Of a stretch of 42,007 nucleotides of DNA, positions 4,861 through 29,358 are shown one piece after another. The position numbers and the translations under genes are program-made. Position 1 is the stretch's first letter. Each line of letters starts with the position of its first letter. The notes below the pieces were generated by a model. It was not told the DNA's origin. It saw nothing but the letters and a program-made list of their open reading frames with translations, and did no database searches. Source of the DNA: Candidatus Terrybacteria bacterium (lineage in GTDB: Bacteria > Patescibacteriota > Minisyncoccia > UBA9983); assembly GCA_016208535.1 (NCBI GenBank), contig JACQXW010000010.1, forward strand, positions 1-42,007, given 5' to 3'.

Positions 4861-7029
4861 ATGAAAAACATCAAAAAATTATTTATTATCAGTTTATTTT
4901 TAGGTATTTTGGTCGCAGCTGGAGGTTTTGGTTATCAGGCCCAGGCCGCTGGCTTAACTCAAATCCAGATTGACGCCATTCTTGGTCTACTTCGCTCTTT
5001 TGGCGCAGACGCAGCAACAGTTAGCAATGTTCAATCCGCTCTCACAGGCGCGCCAGTTGTTCCTCCAACACCTCCTCCACCTCCTTCAACTACTCCTTCA
5101 ACCGCAGCATGGTGCCATGATTTTTATGTTAATTTAAAGGTTGAAGATTCCGGGAGTGAAGTTGGCGCATTAAAAACTGCTTTAATAAAGGATGGTTTTC
5201 CAATAAATGAAAGTTTAAATTTTAATGAAGAGACTGTCTCAGCAGTCATTGGTTTTCAAGAAAAATACAAAGACGAAATTTTAATTCCCGTAGGCCTTCA
5301 ATATGGAACCGGTTATGTTGGCGCATCAACAAGAGCCAAATTGAATTCGCTTTATGGCTGCCTGATTCCTGTTCCTCCTCCACCGCCGTCAGAAATTACC
5401 ATAATCCCAACTCCAACACCGACACCAATAATAGCAACCACCACTCCCTCCATCACCGTGCTTTCGCCGAACGGAGGGGAGGTGTTTGTACAAGGGCAAA
5501 ATAATACAATTTCGTGGGAATCAAGCAATCTCCCGTCCAATACAACCTATGTTCATCTTGCACTAATATCGGAAACTGCCGGCGAAGTTGGCTTTATTAA
5601 TTATACGAATACAAATGACCCGATCTTAAATTGCGGCTCATACTTATTAAGTGCTAATGGTAATTATAGCTGGGATGGAAAAACCGCATGTAAGAATAGT
5701 CAAAAAGTTAATGTATCAGTTGGAAATTATAAAATCAATGCGAGATTATATTCATGGCCTAATACTAATAATCCAGGAATAGAAATTGCTTTAGATTCCA
5801 GCGACGCGGCGTTCAGTATTGCGGCGGCGACACAATCCTCAATAAAACCCATGATATTTAGAGACATTTTGAAAGTAGAGAGTGTAACTCCGTATGATGT
5901 TGCGAATTTAGGTTTTGGTGTCTATCAAGTGAGCGCTCAATATAACTTGGGATCATATCACCAAGGCAAGTGGTATGAAGGATTGAATCCGGGCATCTCG
6001 GGTCCGGTGTGGGTTGAATTTAGTTGGCCAAACCGGCCTGACACTGATGTTCTGTTGCAAGACGAAAATGGTCTTAGCCGAAAAATTTATCTTCCCTCTG
6101 CCGGAGCAAATACAACAGGTAATCCATGGTATTATTGGATAGCCGAGGACGGATCAAGTTATTATGCCCATACAAGTCATGGCCCTAGTTGGCCTAATCT
6201 TTCTAGTAGTGAAGCATTAAAACTGGAGCATCTTGCTCAAAAAGCAGCAACCACCACCACCCCCTCCATCACCGTGCTTTCGCCGAACGGCGGGGAGAGT
6301 TGGAGTGTCGGTTCAACACAGACGATTCGTTGGACATCTCAAAATTTGCCTTCCGGGTCAAATTATCAGTTTTCAATTGATCTTCGTAAAAACGATGTCA
6401 ACATTAGAACACTTTTTATTTCAACGGAGAATGATGGCACTCAACAATGGATAGTCCCGGATATTGTTTCAAGTGGAATCGAAACTGGTTTAAAAATCCG
6501 ACTTTCTCTTTATGTAGTAGGAACTGCTAAACCTCTTTATTACGACGACAGCGACGCGGCGTTCAGTATTGCGGCGGCAGGGCCAGCAACAGGGACTGTG
6601 ACTATCGCTTCACCAAATGGCGGAGAAACATATGTCCAGGGGTCAACTTACAATATCAACTGGACAAATTTTGGTTTTGGATCTGATGCCTGGGCGCAAA
6701 TCCAGCTCAGGAATTCAACTGATCCCTCTAAGATGGTTAGTCTTATCGTTAATTCAGTGCCAGCAACGGCAAATACTGGAAGTACATACAGCTGGACTGT
6801 GCCTAATACCATTCCGGCTGGCAAATATCTTATTTGGGTGACAATGGGAAGTGGATTAGATTCTACTGGAAATCGCGTTCTCGGCTCTGATTATTCCGAC
6901 GCGGCGTTCAGCATTGTGGCCACAACCACTTCTGGTTTAGGGGCGGTGCCGGCATCAACACAAACAGCAAGCGCCCTCGGGCCTTTATTAGAGGCGATAA
7001 ACAAACTAATTGAACTCTTGAAAAAATAG
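4861..7029 (+). CDS. secreted/cell-surface protein: signal peptide, peptidoglycan-binding-like domain, Pro/Thr linkers, three repeated beta-sandwich-like modules
   Basis: 722 aa. N-terminal signal MKNIKKLFIISLFLGILVAAGGFGYQAQA. A PG_binding_1-like stretch (GSEVGALKTALIKDGF...GFQEKY). Three modules each start ...SPNGGE..V/QGS...W and end SDAAFSI(A/V)A. Identical 29-mers occur at 5446/6262 and at 5800/6550. Confidence 0.8.
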   Translation: MKNIKKLFIISLFLGILVAAGGFGYQAQAAGLTQIQIDAILGLLRSFGADAATVSNVQSALTGAPVVPPTPPPPPSTTPSTAAWCHDFYVNLKVEDSGSEVGALKTALIKDGFPINESLNFNEETVSAVIGFQEKYKDEILIPVGLQYGTGYVGASTRAKLNSLYGCLIPVPPPPPSEITIIPTPTPTPIIATTTPSITVLSPNGGEVFVQGQNNTISWESSNLPSNTTYVHLALISETAGEVGFINYTNTNDPILNCGSYLLSANGNYSWDGKTACKNSQKVNVSVGNYKINARLYSWPNTNNPGIEIALDSSDAAFSIAAATQSSIKPMIFRDILKVESVTPYDVANLGFGVYQVSAQYNLGSYHQGKWYEGLNPGISGPVWVEFSWPNRPDTDVLLQDENGLSRKIYLPSAGANTTGNPWYYWIAEDGSSYYAHTSHGPSWPNLSSSEALKLEHLAQKAATTTTPSITVLSPNGGESWSVGSTQTIRWTSQNLPSGSNYQFSIDLRKNDVNIRTLFISTENDGTQQWIVPDIVSSGIETGLKIRLSLYVVGTAKPLYYDDSDAAFSIAAAGPATGTVTIASPNGGETYVQGSTYNINWTNFGFGSDAWAQIQLRNSTDPSKMVSLIVNSVPATANTGSTYSWTVPNTIPAGKYLIWVTMGSGLDSTGNRVLGSDYSDAAFSIVATTTSGLGAVPASTQTASALGPLLEAINKLIELLKK

Positions 7030-16852: not shown

Positions 16853-18991
16853 ATGGCAAAAATTTCTAAAAAAATCAAAGCCCCGAAAAAAATCACGAAG
16901 AGAGACGGCCGGGTTGTTGATTTTGACCAGAATAAAATCACCAAAGCCATTCATAAGGCTCTGACAGCCTCTGGCCAGGGCGATGGAAAAGAGTCAAAAA
17001 AGGTTTCTGACCGCGTAATCAGCCTTATAAATAGGCGTTTTAAGAAGGAGGAGGTTCCTAATGTTGAGGAGGTTCAGGATATTGTGGAAGAGGTCTTGAT
17101 TCTAGAGGGCTATGTGGAAACAGCCAAATCTTACATTCTTTACCGCGAACAGCGCCGCCGCATCCGAGAGCAAAAAACCGCGCTTGACGAGAGCCTGGAT
17201 ATGGTTGATAAATATCTTCGCAATGACGACTGGCAGGTGCGCGAAAACGCCAATATGTCTTTTTCTTTGCAGGGATTGCATCACTATATTATTTCCGCAG
17301 TGAGTAAAAAATACTGGCTGAACAAAATTTACACTCCGGAAATAAGAAAGGCGGTTGAAGAGGGCTCGTTCCATATTCATAATCTTGACTTTTTAGGGAC
17401 TTACTGCTGCGGTTGGGATTTGATGGATCTTTTGATGCGTGGTTTTGGTGGCGTGCTAGGTAAAGTAGAATCAAAGTCAGCCAAACATCTCAATGTCGCC
17501 TTGGGCCAGTTGGTTAATTTTTTCTATACCCTGCAGGGAGAATCAGCAGGCGCCCAGGCAGTGAGCAATTTTGACACCTTGCTGGCGCCATTTATAAGGT
17601 ATGACAATCTCACCTATCAGCAGGTGAAAAAGACCATCCAGACTTTTATTTTCAATTGCGCCATTCCCACTAGGGTTGGTTTTCAAACACCTTTTTTAAA
17701 TGTCACTTTGGATATAAAGCCGCCAGGGCATTTGGCAAGCCAGTCAGTTATCATTGGCGGCCAGCCTCAAAATGAAACCTACGGCGATTTTCAAGAAGAG
17801 ATGAATATTTTTAACAAAGCCTTTTTTGAGGTTATGGCCGAAGGCGACGCCAAGGGCCGGGTTTTCACATTTCCCATCCCCACCGTTAACATCACTAAAG
17901 ATTTTGATTGGGACAATCCTATTTTGCATGGCCTCTGGGAAATGACCGGGAAATACGGGGTACCTTATTTTGCCAATTTTATCAATTCTGAAATGAGCGC
18001 AGATGATGCTCGTTCCATGTGCTGCCGGTTGCGCCTGGACAACCGAGAACTTTATAAGCGCGGAGGAGGTCTTTTTGGTTCAGCCCCTTTGACCGGGTCA
18101 GTTGGCGTGATAACTATTAATCTGCCTCAAATCGGTTATCTTTCAAAAACCAAAAAAGATTTTTTTGACCGGCTTGGCAGGATGATGGATTTGGCAAAGG
18201 ACAGCTTGGAGATTAAGAGAAAGGTTCTTGATAATTTTATTGAAAGGGGACTTTATCCGTACTCCCGCTATTATCTGGAGTCGGTAAAGAGGATGAGGAA
18301 AAGTTATTGGGGAAATCATTTTTCCACCATTGGCCTGATTGGCATGAATGAATGTTTGCTTAATTTTATTGAGAAAGATATTACCGCCTCAGCCGGCCAG
18401 AAATTTAGCGTGGAGATTCTTGATTTTATGCGCGAGAGATTGGTTAAATACCAGGAAGAAACAGACAATCTTTATAATCTTGAGGCCACTCCGGCAGAGG
18501 GGACCAGCTACCGGCTGGCGAAAATAGACAAGGCGAGATTTCCGGACATTATCACAGCCGGCGAAAAAGAACCCTATTACACCAACTCCACCCATTTGCC
18601 GGTCGGATTCACAGACGATATTTTCGAGGCCCTGAAACTGCAGGATAATCTGCAGACCAAATATACCGGCGGCACCGTGCTTCACGGTTTTATCGGCGAA
18701 AAGATTTCTGACCACGAGATTATCAAGAGTATTCTTAAGAAAATTTTCAGCAAACATCATTTGCCTTATCTCACTTTTACGCCCACCTTCAGCATTTGTC
18801 CCAACCACGGTTATATCAGCGGAGAGCATTTCACCTGCCCGCACTGCCTCATTCCCCAACCTTGCGAGGTTTATTCGCGAGTGGTTGGGTATATCAGGCC
18901 CGTCCAACAGTGGCATGTGGGCAAACAAGAAGAGTATAATGAAAGAAAAGAATATGTTGTTGGCAGGACTGCAAAAATTCACCCTAATTGA
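16853..18991 (+). CDS. nrdD: anaerobic ribonucleoside-triphosphate reductase (class III) with N-terminal ATP-cone
   Basis: 712 aa. ATP-cone start (ITKRDGRVVDFDQNKI). C-terminal Zn site CPNHG...CPHC and the glycyl-radical motif ...YSRVVGYIRPV. Confidence 0.95.
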   Translation: MAKISKKIKAPKKITKRDGRVVDFDQNKITKAIHKALTASGQGDGKESKKVSDRVISLINRRFKKEEVPNVEEVQDIVEEVLILEGYVETAKSYILYREQRRRIREQKTALDESLDMVDKYLRNDDWQVRENANMSFSLQGLHHYIISAVSKKYWLNKIYTPEIRKAVEEGSFHIHNLDFLGTYCCGWDLMDLLMRGFGGVLGKVESKSAKHLNVALGQLVNFFYTLQGESAGAQAVSNFDTLLAPFIRYDNLTYQQVKKTIQTFIFNCAIPTRVGFQTPFLNVTLDIKPPGHLASQSVIIGGQPQNETYGDFQEEMNIFNKAFFEVMAEGDAKGRVFTFPIPTVNITKDFDWDNPILHGLWEMTGKYGVPYFANFINSEMSADDARSMCCRLRLDNRELYKRGGGLFGSAPLTGSVGVITINLPQIGYLSKTKKDFFDRLGRMMDLAKDSLEIKRKVLDNFIERGLYPYSRYYLESVKRMRKSYWGNHFSTIGLIGMNECLLNFIEKDITASAGQKFSVEILDFMRERLVKYQEETDNLYNLEATPAEGTSYRLAKIDKARFPDIITAGEKEPYYTNSTHLPVGFTDDIFEALKLQDNLQTKYTGGTVLHGFIGEKISDHEIIKSILKKIFSKHHLPYLTFTPTFSICPNHGYISGEHFTCPHCLIPQPCEVYSRVVGYIRPVQQWHVGKQEEYNERKEYVVGRTAKIHPN

Positions 18992-19661
18992 TTATCCGGG
19001 CAAAATCGCGGCCTCGGTTTTTACTGCTGGCTGCAATTTTTTGTGTTCTTTTTGTCACAACCCGGAATTAGTGGATCCTTTTTTGATGAAAAATCAGCCT
19101 GTATTGTCAGAAAGTGAAATTTTTGAATTTTTAGAAAGCCGAAGAGGGGATTTAGAGGGTGTATGCATTACCGGTGGCGAACCTACTTTGCATAAAGATT
19201 TGGCCGATTTTTTATCAAAGATAAAAAGTTTGGGTTTTAGCGTAAAATTGGATACAAACGGTAGCCATCCGGAGATGCTGGAAAAATTGATTAAAGAAAA
19301 ACTTGTTGATTATATCGCCATGGACATCAAGGCGCCGCTTGAAAGATATGAAGAAATAACAGGGGTGGCGAATTTAGAGAAAATTAAAAAGAGTGTTGAG
19401 TTGATAAAAAATTCCGATATTGATTACGAGTTTAGGACAACGGTTGTGCCAAGATTCCACAGCAAAGAAGATATCATTCAAATCGCCAAAGAAATTTCGT
19501 CTCCAAAGAAGCCGGCGAAAAAATATTTCCTTCAGCAGTTTTATTCCATAAAAACCTTGGACCCGGAATTAAAGAAAGAAAAAGGGTATTCAAAAGAAAT
19601 CCTCGCTGAATTCTGCGAGGCAGTGAAGCCGTACTTTGAGCACTGTGGCGTGCGTTATTGA
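18939..19661 (+). CDS. nrdG: anaerobic RNR activating protein (radical SAM)
   Basis: The CNFLCSFCHN (CxxxCxxC) cluster motif and GGEPTL. It overlaps the nrdD 3' end. The start is 18939 or 18954; the ORF-track start at 18885 is less likely. Confidence 0.9.
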   Translation: MKEKNMLLAGLQKFTLIDYPGKIAASVFTAGCNFLCSFCHNPELVDPFLMKNQPVLSESEIFEFLESRRGDLEGVCITGGEPTLHKDLADFLSKIKSLGFSVKLDTNGSHPEMLEKLIKEKLVDYIAMDIKAPLERYEEITGVANLEKIKKSVELIKNSDIDYEFRTTVVPRFHSKEDIIQIAKEISSPKKPAKKYFLQQFYSIKTLDPELKKEKGYSKEILAEFCEAVKPYFEHCGVRY

Positions 19662-19685
19662 CAAAAAATCTGTTTCGTGTATAAT
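19658..19685 (+). promoter_or_regulatory. near-consensus promoter TTGACA-N16-TATAAT
   Basis: TTGACAaaaaatctgtttcgtgTATAAT. It is followed by a ~60-nt leader with the hairpin TCCCGC-ctt-GCGGGA and an AAGGAG SD. Confidence 0.65.
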
Positions 19686-19749
19686 ACAATTAGTTCTTTT
19701 CAAATCCCGCCTTGCGGGACAAATACCAAATTTTAAGGAGAAAACTGCC

Positions 19750-20256
19750 ATGAAAAAGCAGAACACCTATGATCAGCAGACAGCAAAGTTTATCGCGACG
19801 GTATGCCAGAATATGCCCGAATTACCGGGCGACGTGATGCAGGGATGGATTCAAAACCCGAAAGGCCTCAAGAAATTTCTCAAAGGCCTCTGCCCACCGG
19901 AAACTTCATCAAGTTTCCCTGTCTGGAAAACCGTCACTCTCGGTATTCATAAATCAGTCGATGAATACCGCAAAGCTCTCGAAGCAAACGGATTCAAAAT
20001 AGGCAACTGGGGCGACGACATTCTCGGCAAATCGGCTTTCACCGTGAGCTCCGAAGAAACAGAAGTGGAATTAGTAAAAATGACCGTCGCAGAACTCGGA
20101 TTCAAAGACAGCGCGACCAGGAAAGATATCTACGAGAGAGCCATTGAGTTCGGGCTCAAGCTCTGCCCGAATGAAGTTGGTCCCGCCCTGCGCCTGCAAT
20201 ACACAGATCAGCCAATCCTTGGTCCTTTTTATTTTTTAAAATTTTTGCTAAACTAA
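19750..20256 (+). CDS. N-terminal part of a disrupted gene (candidate DGR target), unknown family
   Basis: The ATG lies 9 nt after AAGGAG. The region looks visibly more G+C-rich than its surroundings. The conserved-looking sequence ...CPNEVGPALRLQYTDQP is followed by low-complexity ILGPFYFLKFLLN and a stop. The ORF-track start at 19636 is rejected. Confidence 0.55.
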   Translation: MKKQNTYDQQTAKFIATVCQNMPELPGDVMQGWIQNPKGLKKFLKGLCPPETSSSFPVWKTVTLGIHKSVDEYRKALEANGFKIGNWGDDILGKSAFTVSSEETEVELVKMTVAELGFKDSATRKDIYERAIEFGLKLCPNEVGPALRLQYTDQPILGPFYFLKFLLN

Positions 20257-20442
20257 ATTTTAGATATTAGATTAATAAATGCCTGCGGTTACGGCTTCAG
20301 GCGATCGAATTCTGAAATCAGTAAAGCAGAGAACGGCATCGGGCACGCTTTATGCCGGAGTTGTTTATTGATTTCAAAAAAATAAAGAAACTTGGTATAA
20401 GGCGCTGGGGCATTAAAGATGCCGTATACGATTCAACTCTAA

Positions 20443-20658
20443 GAGTATTCGAAGAGTGGTGGCATAGATGGCGTCTTATACATTACTGACTCCAATGGCA
20501 ACCTCAATGTGTTTGAAGTGGAACGGAATAGCGATGGCTTATGGCTTAACGGCAACAACGGCAATCCTGACAACTTGTGGAACGCTGACAACCAGTGGGT
20601 TTTCTCTCGCGGCAACTCTCTTTATTTTTTCCCCGCTCTTCGCGGGGTTTTTAATTAA
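20443..20658 (+). other. open frame without start codon: C-terminal fragment of the disrupted gene; Asn-codon-rich VR/TR-like segment
   Basis: Same frame as the 19750 ATG. It reads ...GIDGVLYITDSNGNLNVFEVERNSDGLWLNGNNGNPDNLWNADNQWVFSRGNSLYFF..., with 8 AAC and 4 AAT codons in about 47 codons. Confidence 0.5.
20631..20652 (+). terminator. GC hairpin plus T-run at the end of the VR/TR-like segment
   Basis: CCCCGC-tcttc-GCGGGG followed by TTTTT. The palindrome TTAATTAA that follows supplies the stop codons of both convergent reading frames. Confidence 0.6.
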
Positions 20659-21023
20659 GCAGTTGTTTTTGCCATCCACCCAGTATCCTGCCAATTTCAT
20701 CCAAATATTCAGAAAAGACAATATATTTTTTATTATCCAAAGATTTTATTTCCCAGGAAATTTGCAGAAAAAACTTCAAAAGGTCCAGTTTTGAAATGGC
20801 TTTTTGTATGTACGGAGTTTTTAAGTTTTTATTCAATCGGCTTGCTATAAAAATCAACTCAGCGATTTCTATTATTAAACTATCAATCTTAATTCCCAGC
20901 GTGTAGCGCGAATCTTTCGGAAAGTGCGGAATAAATTCATGCCACAGCTTATATAACGCAATAATACAAATAATTATTGTTAAATTTTGTCGGGGGGGGG
21001 GGCGTACTGGTGAAATTTTTCAT
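20651..21023 (-). pseudogene. avd: Avd-like four-helix-bundle protein (DGR accessory), apparent frameshift in a C11/G11 tract
   Basis: The open frame reads ...LYKLWHEFIPHFPKDSRYTLGIKIDSLIIEIAELIFIASRLNK...KLDLLKFFLQISWEIKSLDNKKYIVFSEYLDEIGRILGGWQKQLLN. The only in-frame start is the TTG at 20857 (68 aa), which would remove the first helices. The ATG at 21023 comes into frame, giving 123 aa, if the homopolymer were 10 nt rather than 11. Confidence 0.55.
20992..21002. repeat. homopolymeric G11 tract
   Basis: gtcGGGGGGGGGGGcgtactgg, 39 nt upstream of the RT ATG and inside the avd 5' region. Confidence 0.9.
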
Positions 21024-21040
21024 ATACTAATAATACGCCC

Positions 21041-22027
21041 ATGATAAACAAATTCCAAACTAAATACGAAGAAATTATCTCTATCGAAAACCTCCTTTCG
21101 GCTTGGGAAGAATTTTTGAAAGGCAAAAGAAACAGAAAAGATGTTCAAGAATTTCAGTTTAATCTGATGGACAACATCCTTGCTCTCCATGGCAATCTCG
21201 CCAGCCGAACTTACAGCCACGGCGGATATAAAGCATTCAAAATCAACGACCCAAAGCCGAGAGATATCCACAAAGCAAGCGTGCGGGACAGATTGTTGCA
21301 TCACGCCATTTACAGGATTTTGTATCCGTATTTTGACAAAACATTCATAGCCGATTCTTTTTCCTGCAGATTAAAAAAGGGCACGCACAAAGCGATAAAC
21401 AGATTCAGAAAATTTGCCTACAAAACCGGCAAAAATGACACCAAAACCTGCTGGATTTTAAAATGCGATATCAAGAAGTTTTTTGCCAACATAGACCACA
21501 AAATTTTAATCAATGTCCTGCGTGAACATATTGTGGACGAAAACTTGATAAAACTTCTCAAAAACATCGTTGAAAGTTTTTCGTCAGCAAGAGATGGCAT
21601 CGGTTTACCATTAGGCAATCTCACTTCGCAACTTTTCGTAAATATTTACATGAACAAATTTGACCAATTTGTAAAACACAAATTGAAAGCGAAATATTAC
21701 ATCAGATATTGCGACGATTTTGTTGTTTTCTTGGAAAGTAAAAATTATGCGCAAAAATTGATTCCGCCCGTCAGGGAATTCCTAAACAAAGAGCTTAAAC
21801 TGGAACTGCATCCCGACAAAATTTCCGTCAAAACTCTGGCTTCCGGCGCCGACTTTCTCGGCTGGATTAATTTTACCGACCATAGAATTTTGAGAACCGC
21901 CACAAAAAGAAAAATATTCAGGAATATCAAGGAAAGGGGAGGTAAGGCGGAAACCGTCCAGTCGTATTTGGGGCTGATTAGGTGGGGGAATACAAGGAAA
22001 TTGCGTAATTTAATTGTAAAGTGTTGA
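21041..22027 (+). CDS. DGR-type reverse transcriptase
   Basis: 328 aa. ...NDPKPRDIHKASVRDRLLHHAIY...KCDIKKFFANIDH...GLPLGNLTSQLFVNIYMNKFDQFVKH...YIRYCDDFVVF...LELHPDKISV...ADFLGW. It carries the LGxxxSQ motif-4 signature and YxDD. Confidence 0.9.
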   Translation: MINKFQTKYEEIISIENLLSAWEEFLKGKRNRKDVQEFQFNLMDNILALHGNLASRTYSHGGYKAFKINDPKPRDIHKASVRDRLLHHAIYRILYPYFDKTFIADSFSCRLKKGTHKAINRFRKFAYKTGKNDTKTCWILKCDIKKFFANIDHKILINVLREHIVDENLIKLLKNIVESFSSARDGIGLPLGNLTSQLFVNIYMNKFDQFVKHKLKAKYYIRYCDDFVVFLESKNYAQKLIPPVREFLNKELKLELHPDKISVKTLASGADFLGWINFTDHRILRTATKRKIFRNIKERGGKAETVQSYLGLIRWGNTRKLRNLIVKC

Positions 22028-22059
22028 CATATTTTTGAGAGGATATATACTGTTAATCA

Positions 22060-22150
22060 TAAGGCCGTAGATGACAGGCGCTTGGGATAAAACAAGATAA
22101 GTCCTGTTGAGGTAAATTAACATTGCGGCTTTTGGGCCGTATTTTATTTT
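22060..22150 (+). promoter_or_regulatory. possible rplJ (L10) leader
   Basis: A ~120-nt untranslated spacer before rplJ with local pairings (GACAGG...CCTGTT). The assignment rests on position only. Confidence 0.25.
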
Positions 22151-22151
22151 T

Positions 22152-22676
22152 ATGTCCATAACAAAACAAAAAAAAGAGGAAATATTAGAGAATCTTAAAG
22201 AAAGCCTGAAAAAGGCGAAGATTGTGGTTTTTGTTAATTTTCATGGTCTAAGTGTTTCTCTTGCCAATGAACTAAGAAAGATTTTAAGGAGTATGGGCGT
22301 GACTTATATGGTTGCCAAGAAGACTTTGATTAAAAAAGCGCTGGAGACTTTTGGATTTTCCGGAGAGATGCCGAAATTGGAGGGAGAGATTGCCATCGCT
22401 GTTTCTGACAGCGATCCCCTTGCCTCAGCCAAGGCCTTGGAGCAGTTTGCGAAAAAAAATAAAGATAAAATCAAACTTGGTGGCGGAGTTTTTGAAAACA
22501 AATACATTGGAGCGGAAACCGTGATTATGCTTGCCAATATTCCAGCGCGCGAAATTTTACTTGGCCAATTAGTCAATATTATAAATTCGCCGATTCAGGG
22601 ATTGGTCGTAACCTTGAACGGATTAGTAAGCAAGTTTGTGAGAACTTTAGAAGAAATAGCAAAAAAGAAATCATAA
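22152..22676 (+). CDS. rplJ: 50S ribosomal protein L10
   Basis: 174 aa. The sequence (...VVFVNFHGLSVSLANELRKILR...YMVAKKTL) and its position upstream of rplL support the call. Confidence 0.9.
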   Translation: MSITKQKKEEILENLKESLKKAKIVVFVNFHGLSVSLANELRKILRSMGVTYMVAKKTLIKKALETFGFSGEMPKLEGEIAIAVSDSDPLASAKALEQFAKKNKDKIKLGGGVFENKYIGAETVIMLANIPAREILLGQLVNIINSPIQGLVVTLNGLVSKFVRTLEEIAKKKS

Positions 22677-22682
22677 AAATTT

Positions 22683-23063
22683 ATGTCAAAACATAAAGAT
22701 ATTATTGAAAAAATAGAGTCCATGAGCGTTCTTGAACTGCATGAATTAGTGAAGACGCTTGAGGAAAAATTCGGGGTGTCAGCGCAAGCTGTGGCAATGG
22801 CCGCACCTGCGGCAGGAGCCGTTTCAGCAGCCGGAGAAGAAAAAGAAGAAAAAACATCGTTTAATGTTGAACTCAAGAAGGCTGGGGAACAAAAAATCCA
22901 GGCCATTAAGGTTTTAAGGGATGCGCTTGGTCTGGGCCTTAAGGAGGCAAAGGATATGGTGGATGGCGCGCCAATTGTGGTGAAAGAAGGCATGGATAAA
23001 AAATCTGCCGAAGAACTGAAGACAAAACTTGAGGCAGCCGGTTGCGCAGTTGAACTGAAATAA
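22683..23063 (+). CDS. rplL: 50S ribosomal protein L7/L12
   Basis: 126 aa. ...[18 protein letters not shown]..., an Ala-rich hinge, and ...[27 protein letters not shown]...[11 protein letters not shown]. Confidence 0.95.
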
Positions 23064-24508: not shown

Positions 24509-24580
24509 TTATCCACAGCAACCGAGCACATAGATTATGTGCTCGGTTGACTTGTTTTTAGGAGATATTTATTTTATACT
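24509..24580 (+). promoter_or_regulatory. promoter module copy 1: TTATCCACA - palindrome CCGAGCACA-tagatta-TGTGCTCGG - TTGACT ... TATACT
   Basis: Positions 24509-24560 match 25609-25660 except for the 7-nt palindrome centre. A TATTTT box lies 17 nt after the TTGACT (24547-24552). Alternatively, TTGTTT-N17-TATACT sits 7 nt before the hicB ATG. Confidence 0.6.
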
Positions 24581-25608: not shown

Positions 25609-25675
25609 TTATCCACAGCAACCGAGCACATAATCTATGTGCTCGGTTGACTTGTTTTTAAGTCAAGTATATAAT
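25609..25675 (+). promoter_or_regulatory. promoter module copy 2 (23S-5S rRNA leader): TTATCCACA - palindrome CCGAGCACA-taatcta-TGTGCTCGG - TTGACT-N17-TATAAT
   Basis: Consensus TTGACT (25647-25652) and TATAAT (25670-25675). The leader contains a weak boxA-like GCTCTGTTTTAAC at about 25731. Confidence 0.7.

Positions 25676-25920: not shown

Positions 25921-29358
<3,438 letters not shown>

Follow-up and report, generated by a model that had tools for sequence, protein, structure and literature searches.

The diversity-generating retroelement (DGR) of the Bordetella phage BPP-1, laid out as mtd-VR / avd / TR / brt, is the prototype of the elements considered here, and those of Candidate Phyla Radiation (CPR) bacteria and DPANN organisms have reportedly been catalogued by Paul et al. 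(Nat Microbiol 2:17045, 2017). In the phage element, the RNA flanking the template repeat (TR) envelops the complex of reverse transcriptase (RT) and accessory protein (bRT-Avd); it includes a stem-loop that binds Avd, directly 3' of the TR, and a duplex at which cDNA synthesis stops (Handa et al., bioRxiv 10.1101/2023.10.23.563531). Wu et al. (2018; PMC5758913) found ribosomal protein genes in some CPR DGR cassettes; they retained only putatively functional DGRs with pairs of TR and variable repeat (VR), and over half of their candidates were set aside because they were truncated or inactivated. Here we analyzed a locus on a 42,007-nt (42-kb) stretch of DNA from a Candidatus Terrybacteria bacterium (contig JACQXW010000010.1 of assembly GCA_016208535.1), hereafter the window, and found it to belong to the known CPR kind of DGR, in an orphaned state.

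The RT gene of the window (21041..22027, + strand) is intact and encodes a DGR reverse transcriptase of 328 aa that matches RVT_1 (1.8e-25) and carries LGNLTSQ and YCDD motifs, the former presumably being of the [ILV]GxxxSQ type. The best solved structure for this protein was 8ub7_A (E=3.9e-41, full length), which we take to be the Bordetella phage DGR RT (bRT), in agreement with the cryo-EM preprint; the next was a group II intron RT at 2e-19. Profile, structure match and motifs thus all identify an RT of the DGR clade, and the gene is collinear with its counterparts in related loci. A further DGR hallmark, an Avd gene adjoining the RT, is also present: a bAvd-like accessory gene (avd, 20651..21042, - strand) matches PF22296 (bAvd) with E=7.6e-13, above the curated cutoff, its body frame being broken at a poly-C tract. 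Upstream, the cassette is neighboured by a radical SAM gene (18885-19661, identified with Pfam), and downstream by two ORFs (22152-22676 and 22683-23063) that we take to encode ribosomal proteins L10 and L7/L12. Farther downstream of the DGR, a palindromic element of 26-31 nt (CAACCGAGCACATA..TATGTGCTCGGTTG) occurs in three copies (24519-24549, 25619-25649 and 26043-26068) flanking small genes, among them a putative HicA/HicB-like pair.

An earlier note on this DNA, made from the letters alone, had pointed to an Asn-codon-dense segment at 20494-20620 and proposed it as either the TR of the neighbouring RT or a VR of that RT with little diversification. Its codon counts proved exact (8 AAC and 4 AAT in the note's own frame), and the core of its interval held, while the edges moved: the repeat starts 12 nt earlier and stops 4 nt sooner, giving a TR of 135 nt at 20482..20616 (+ strand), as judged from collinearity with the TRs of relatives, TR/VR pairs, codon pattern and column entropy. 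This stretch holds 12 AAY codons (8 AAC + 4 AAT) among 45 and encodes the peptide ITDSNGNLNVFEVERNSDGLWLNGNNGNPDNLWNADNQWVFSRGN. Such richness in Asn codons is far above chance expectation; when all six frames of the 42 kb were scanned for at least 7 AAC per 45-codon window, 20458-20548(+) was the sole place returned. The TR contains 37 adenines, distributed 15/19/3 over codon positions 1/2/3, so that 34 of the 37 fall at position 1 or 2; the DGR hallmark of TR adenines at these two positions in the frame shared with the VR is thereby present (12 AAY in 45 codons). The frame opens after a stop at 20440-20442 and has no ATG, a GTG at 20509 being the sole alternative start, which agrees with the remark in the note that the segment lacks a start codon of its own.

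The note had also found no second copy of the segment by eye, and this was borne out in the 42-kb window by an ordinary repeat search, by A-masked ungapped scans of both strands and by tblastn, none of which returned one. A TR/VR pair differing at TR adenines, a DGR hallmark, was accordingly not found in the 42-kb window. An A-masked pattern of the TR 3' end gave 85 matching stretches in our genome collection (the source MAG is not among its genomes), the relevant ones being two, L017 and L033, both in one Paceibacterota MAG. We file the locus as a DGR with a lost VR, the missing pair being explained by a deletion that took the VR-bearing end of the neighbouring target gene, as detailed below.

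The assignment of the segment as a TR comes from related loci. It is collinear with the TRs of L001, L017, L089, L090 and L091, where a diversified copy forms the 3' end of the upstream target gene and differs from the TR almost exclusively at adenines. In L001, which shares 77-80% nucleotide identity with the window, the VR (5499-5632) ends the target gene and the Asn-rich TR (6011-6145) lies 512 nt downstream. All 15 TR-to-VR substitutions in this pair are at TR adenines, in addition to one single-A deletion, and the corresponding counts are 21/21 for L089, 15/15 for L090, 9/10 for L091 and 17/18 for the L017 TR against the L003 VR, these two contigs being from one MAG. Since the segment of the window is collinear with the downstream, invariant copy of these relatives, it is the TR; the first half of the note's reading thus stands on collinearity, and the second, a VR, falls. 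The L001 TR has one C more than that of the window, and the single-A deletion in the L001 VR offsets it, so that the VR remains in frame even though the L001 TR does not.

The target family shows the same pattern at the protein level. A homologue query that fused the truncated upstream ORF with the segment's peptide retrieved 173 proteins of ~210 aa in which both parts were covered contiguously. The family is conserved through ...LRLQYxDQPxGEWLxIAMEPIxDS and hypervariable exactly opposite the Asn codons of the window. Among 110 target homologues, mean column entropy was 2.62 bits where the facing TR codon bears A at its first or second position, compared with 1.14 bits where it does not (Mann-Whitney p=2.4e-6); the AAY codons taken by themselves gave 3.01 bits, against 1.16 bits for the remainder of the protein. 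In the window, all 12 of the variable positions are in the unmutated AAY state.

These data also bear on the alternative that the segment is a little-diversified VR cut off from its gene by an insertion or intron of 265 nt, with the true TR located elsewhere. The segment does share its reading frame with the upstream ORF, and its peptide does align with the C-terminus of the target family. The unmutated state of every variable position speaks against it, as does the 3' flank of the segment, which is of the TR type and has neither the stop codon nor the long hairpin that follow a VR. Moreover, three in-frame stops separate the ORF from the segment, and the window lacks GEWLLIAMEP, the ~10 residues found just ahead of the VR in homologues. 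The intervening 265 nt, in which Rfam finds neither an intron nor any other RNA family, correspond to the conserved leader by which VR and TR are separated in over 100 loci. The idea that a VR-bearing gene is split here by an insertion or intron was accordingly rejected, and we regard the VR alternative as very improbable. We conclude that 20482-20616 is, with high probability, the TR of a CPR-type DGR whose local VR was lost by deletion, leaving the element an orphan.

The deletion itself could be placed by alignment. The upstream target gene, HY773_01110 (19750..20256, + strand), is annotated as a hypothetical protein of 168 aa and is recognized as a truncated DGR target gene from its homology to the ~210-aa family. 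Its ORF matches this family only to '...LRLQYTDQP' (~20213) and continues in non-homologous sequence until the stop; by tblastn, residues 1-156 of an intact homologue, P0003, map to 19750-20217. Synteny with L001 is preserved on both sides, with window 19657-20216 corresponding to L001 4905-5467 and window 20225-21978 to L001 5744-7523, while L001 5468-5743 (276 nt), including the VR at 5499-5632, is missing from the window; in comparison with L003, 206 nt are missing. The lost stretch begins 30 nt ahead of the VR and reaches halfway into the terminator hairpin; the last ~55 target codons, and with them the entire VR, are gone, as are the stop codon and the hairpin's left arm. Relatives carry a long imperfect hairpin and a T-run after the target stop codon; in the window the left arm of this hairpin is deleted, and alignment with L001, L002 and L003 identified the remnant as the right arm CCTTGGTCC with its T-run (20217..20240, + strand). 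The junction, as aligned with L003 and L001, reads CAGCC-AAT-CCTTGG (20214..20217, + strand), with the AAT forming a 3-nt microhomology. In an AlphaFold model of P0003 (pLDDT 92), the deleted residues make up four strands, E159-162 to E204-208, of the C-terminal domain. We infer that the target remnant is a pseudogene, and the orphaned DGR was probably inactivated recently.

The truncated protein was found on one contig only, and it has to be considered whether the loss of the VR might be an assembly artefact, in which case the real genome would have an intact target gene with its VR and the DGR would be fully functional. Metagenome assemblies are often broken or distorted by population heterogeneity of the VR and by TR/VR repeats, and in one related MAG the contigs L003 and L017 are separated precisely at the TR. 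The junction in the window, on the other hand, is not within the TR/VR repeat: it falls ~30 nt short of the VR start and ~70 nt past the VR end, and offers merely 3 nt of microhomology, across which a k-mer assembler should not be able to join sequences unless reads contain the junction; collapse by the assembler would therefore seem unlikely. Furthermore, collapse of the repeats would be expected to give a VR::TR hybrid fused to the gene, as is seen in L093, and this is not the state of the window. Taken together, we judge an artefact to be quite unlikely and retain a genuine deletion as the preferred reading. The L093 locus (1252-2330; JGI Ga0613736_000048) has a single hybrid repeat, VR-like and diversified in its 5' half and Asn-rich and TR-like in its 3' half, which is fused to the target gene; the leader is lost, and avd (with a C13 tract) and the RT are intact. 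This looks like homologous recombination between VR and TR, and thus like a second route to a single-copy DGR. In the split Paceibacterota MAG, the contig with target and leader (L003 5868-6023, contig end) ends in a different TR-like sequence (...NRNYPYLNKDGSKRNLNLNWIDNRW...), and the cognate TR of the L003 target stands at the start of another contig (L017 1-140); the near-identical leaders of two DGRs probably broke or chimerised this assembly.

The stretch between the target terminator and the TR is a conserved structured 5' leader of the TR RNA (20263..20481, + strand), as indicated by alignment and covariation. A search pattern built from it returned at least 120 metagenomic loci (L094-L213), where it is attached to TRs of several target types, and this leader of ~220 nt is kept even where the TR of a relative encodes a different variable domain. 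Of the loci with the leader, 120 extend far enough past it to be assessed, and 97 of these have a VR-like second copy, mostly 450-520 nt upstream on the same strand; the great majority of its mismatches are at TR adenines. This VR lies directly upstream of the TR in 96 of the 97; the exception is L150, whose VR is 2.2 kb downstream of the TR. Most of the VR-less loci begin too near a contig end, and apart from the window only six others have more than 700 nt upstream and yet no VR. It might be argued, with L150 as a precedent, that the DGR of the window is still active because its TR serves a remote VR elsewhere, the local target loss being irrelevant to function: RT, TR, leader and 3' stem-loop are all intact and conserved, and the apparent avd frameshift is normal for related loci. 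No such VR was found within ~20 kb on either side, and the placement directly upstream in nearly all relatives also counts against it; we hold a remote target to be unlikely, and an orphan left by loss of the local VR remains our reading.

Covariation defined five helices in the leader: one at 20281-20290/20293-20302, one at 20323-20344/20347-20366, a long-range helix of 10 bp at 20397-20406/20470-20479 that ends 2 nt before the TR, and two shorter ones at 20409-20413/20419-20423 and 20436-20439/20454-20457 (all + strand). The alignment contained 111 unique leaders with a median identity to the window of 63%, and 39 of the 48 pairs of the consensus had compensatory double changes. In this alignment 94.2% of cells were paired, compared with 76.2% in shuffles, and 1056 cells were changed on both sides, compared with 296 in shuffles; in slid controls, in which the 3' partners were moved by 1-3 columns, 34-48% were paired. 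Across 74 loci, the distance from the 10-bp helix to the start of TR/VR homology had a median of 5 nt (interquartile range 4-6). By analogy with the phage element, the helix abutting the TR may act as a cDNA stop element, and the large leader may take the scaffold role that the 3' Sp RNA holds in the phage. Rfam returned no match in window 19000-23000 at E<=1 and, in 16 related loci at E<=0.1, nothing but an unrelated tRNA; its families are said to include the RT-associated motifs of Weinberg et al. from 2017. We found no description of the 5' leader in the DGR literature searched.

On the other side of the TR, a conserved 3' flank (20617..20652, + strand) consists of CTCTCTTTATTTTTT, a 6-bp GC stem-loop (20631-20647) and TTTTT. 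The GC-only hairpin and T-run noticed earlier are real, since a terminator scan picked up both (CCCCGC-TCTTC-GCGGGG at 20631-20647, followed by TTTTT), but the argument drawn from VR-flanking cruciforms gave way: the hairpin is the stem-loop that follows TRs across this DGR family. Thus, 84 unique relatives have CTCTYTTYATTT, a stem-loop that varies in sequence and keeps its pairing, and a T-run. The flank resembles both a terminator and an Avd-binding stem-loop, and on this likeness the stem-loop at 20631-20647 may serve as either one or as both. A GAGAG loop of the leader and a CUCUC of the 3' flank, checked for mutual covariation, are both nearly invariant. The U/C-rich flank contains a lone conserved purine, usually A, which is found ~9 nt past the TR end at 20625 and at the corresponding site of relatives (context CTCTCTTT-A-TTTT); to liken it to Sp A56 of the Bordetella phage element, as a cis-priming nucleotide, would be pure speculation.

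The frame of avd is interrupted near its 5' end by a C11 tract (G11 on the + strand; 20992..21002, - strand), identified from the sequence and its relatives, which encodes PPP. The body frame has no start codon, and the candidate ATGs at 21023 and 21042 (- strand) are out of frame across C11. A run of at least 5 C occupies the same site in 77 of 93 related loci (mode 9-10, range 6-19), 4-15 codons into avd; L001, L089, L093 and ~75 other loci have it at the same position. An ATG in the Avd body frame was present in 26 of the 77 tract-bearing loci, and an ATG in another frame only in 48. The frameshift at G11 was considered as a sign of decay, and this was rejected because these 48 relatives are in the same state. 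Among 74 unique tract contexts, the frame is kept in 24, the tract has one extra C in 25 and is one C short in 10, and tract length differs in three of seven pairs of loci whose 400-nt flanks are 100% identical (10 vs 8, 12 vs 15 and 10 vs 9). These features of the tract point to a gate on DGR activity that would work by phase variation, by slippage during transcription or by +1 frameshifting of ribosomes at CCC-C; a report of a poly-C tract in avd was not found in the literature searched. The ATG of the RT (21041) and a candidate avd start (CAT at 21040-21042 on the + strand) overlap on opposite strands, and in L017 this overlap falls inside a palindromic CCATGG.

Intact relatives present the parts in a common order: a target gene with the VR at its 3' end, a terminator, the structured leader of ~220 nt and the TR, followed by a short flank rich in C and U that carries a stem-loop and a U-run, then by avd, which is on the opposite strand, and by the RT. 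A single transcript of ~390 nt would span leader, TR and stem-loop. By the established DGR mechanism, the RT-Avd complex would copy the TR into cDNA and misincorporate opposite adenines, so that AAY codons turn into many different residues, and the cDNA would then replace the VR; synthesis might stop at the covarying 10-bp helix, whose position next to the template's 5' edge suits this role. Here a deletion of ~206-276 nt took the VR along with the last ~55 target codons, so that TR, RNA scaffold, avd and RT are left with no local substrate. We tentatively put forward a joint model, doubtful as it must be in its entirety, in which the clade uses a self-contained, terminator-bounded TR RNA of ~390 nt with a protein-binding 5' scaffold and a helix-set cDNA stop, translation of avd is gated by the hypermutable poly-C tract (either +1 slippage at CCC-C or phase variation being the means), and the machine of the window is intact and possibly acts in trans on a target elsewhere. 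If this were true, the scaffold 5' of the template would be permuted with respect to the phage element, whose Sp RNA is 3' of the TR, and poly-C gating of avd would make hypermutation itself switchable.

For annotation, the locus is an example of a DGR missed by pair-based detectors, since tools that require a TR/VR pair would not call the window; its TR is still assignable from synteny, from the RNA elements on either side and from where the target family varies. The locus also illustrates a route of DGR death or disarming, in which a small deletion removes the VR and spares the machinery. Both the 5' leader and the poly-C tract of avd, with its hypervariable length, may be newer than the DGR itself and possibly matter more, as testable handles on ribonucleoprotein assembly and on the regulation of mutagenesis in CPR DGRs.

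In comparison with known systems, the target family resembles the DGR variable proteins of C-type-lectin fold (Mtd, TvpA, AvpA) in having its VR in the C-terminal ~45 residues. When the P0003 model was compared with the PDB, the best matches were mostly C-type lectin domains, at weak scores (E 0.04-1, target-normalised TM 0.42-0.46), none of them significant; solved DGR variable proteins were not among the PDB fold matches listed for the model, a fold search against a viral structure library gave nothing useful, and no link of the target to known CLec classes was found by Pfam or sequence. A CLec-like fold is plausible for the target family as modelled. With the BPP-1 DGR, whose RT is the closest solved relative of the window RT, the locus shares a bAvd-like accessory protein, a TR of ~135 nt whose adenines cluster in AAY codons, at positions 1 and 2, a stem-loop just downstream of the TR, as is the Avd-binding stem-loop, and, in its relatives, a VR with A-specific mismatches at the 3' end of the target. 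It differs from BPP-1 in that avd is on the opposite strand and divergent from the RT, in that the large structured RNA is 5' of the TR (~220 nt) where BPP-1 has the 140-nt Sp 3' of it, in that the RNA 3' of the TR is merely ~35 nt and ends in a terminator-like hairpin, and in that the VR is missing in the window. The likeness to the DGRs of CPR and DPANN organisms extends to host lineage and habitat (Patescibacteria groundwater MAGs), to small target proteins without a Pfam domain, and to a chromosomal position adjoining ribosomal protein genes. Unlike the CPR DGRs that were retained by Wu et al., the locus of the window belongs to the class discarded there as truncated or inactivated, and a disabled DGR is therefore a known category.
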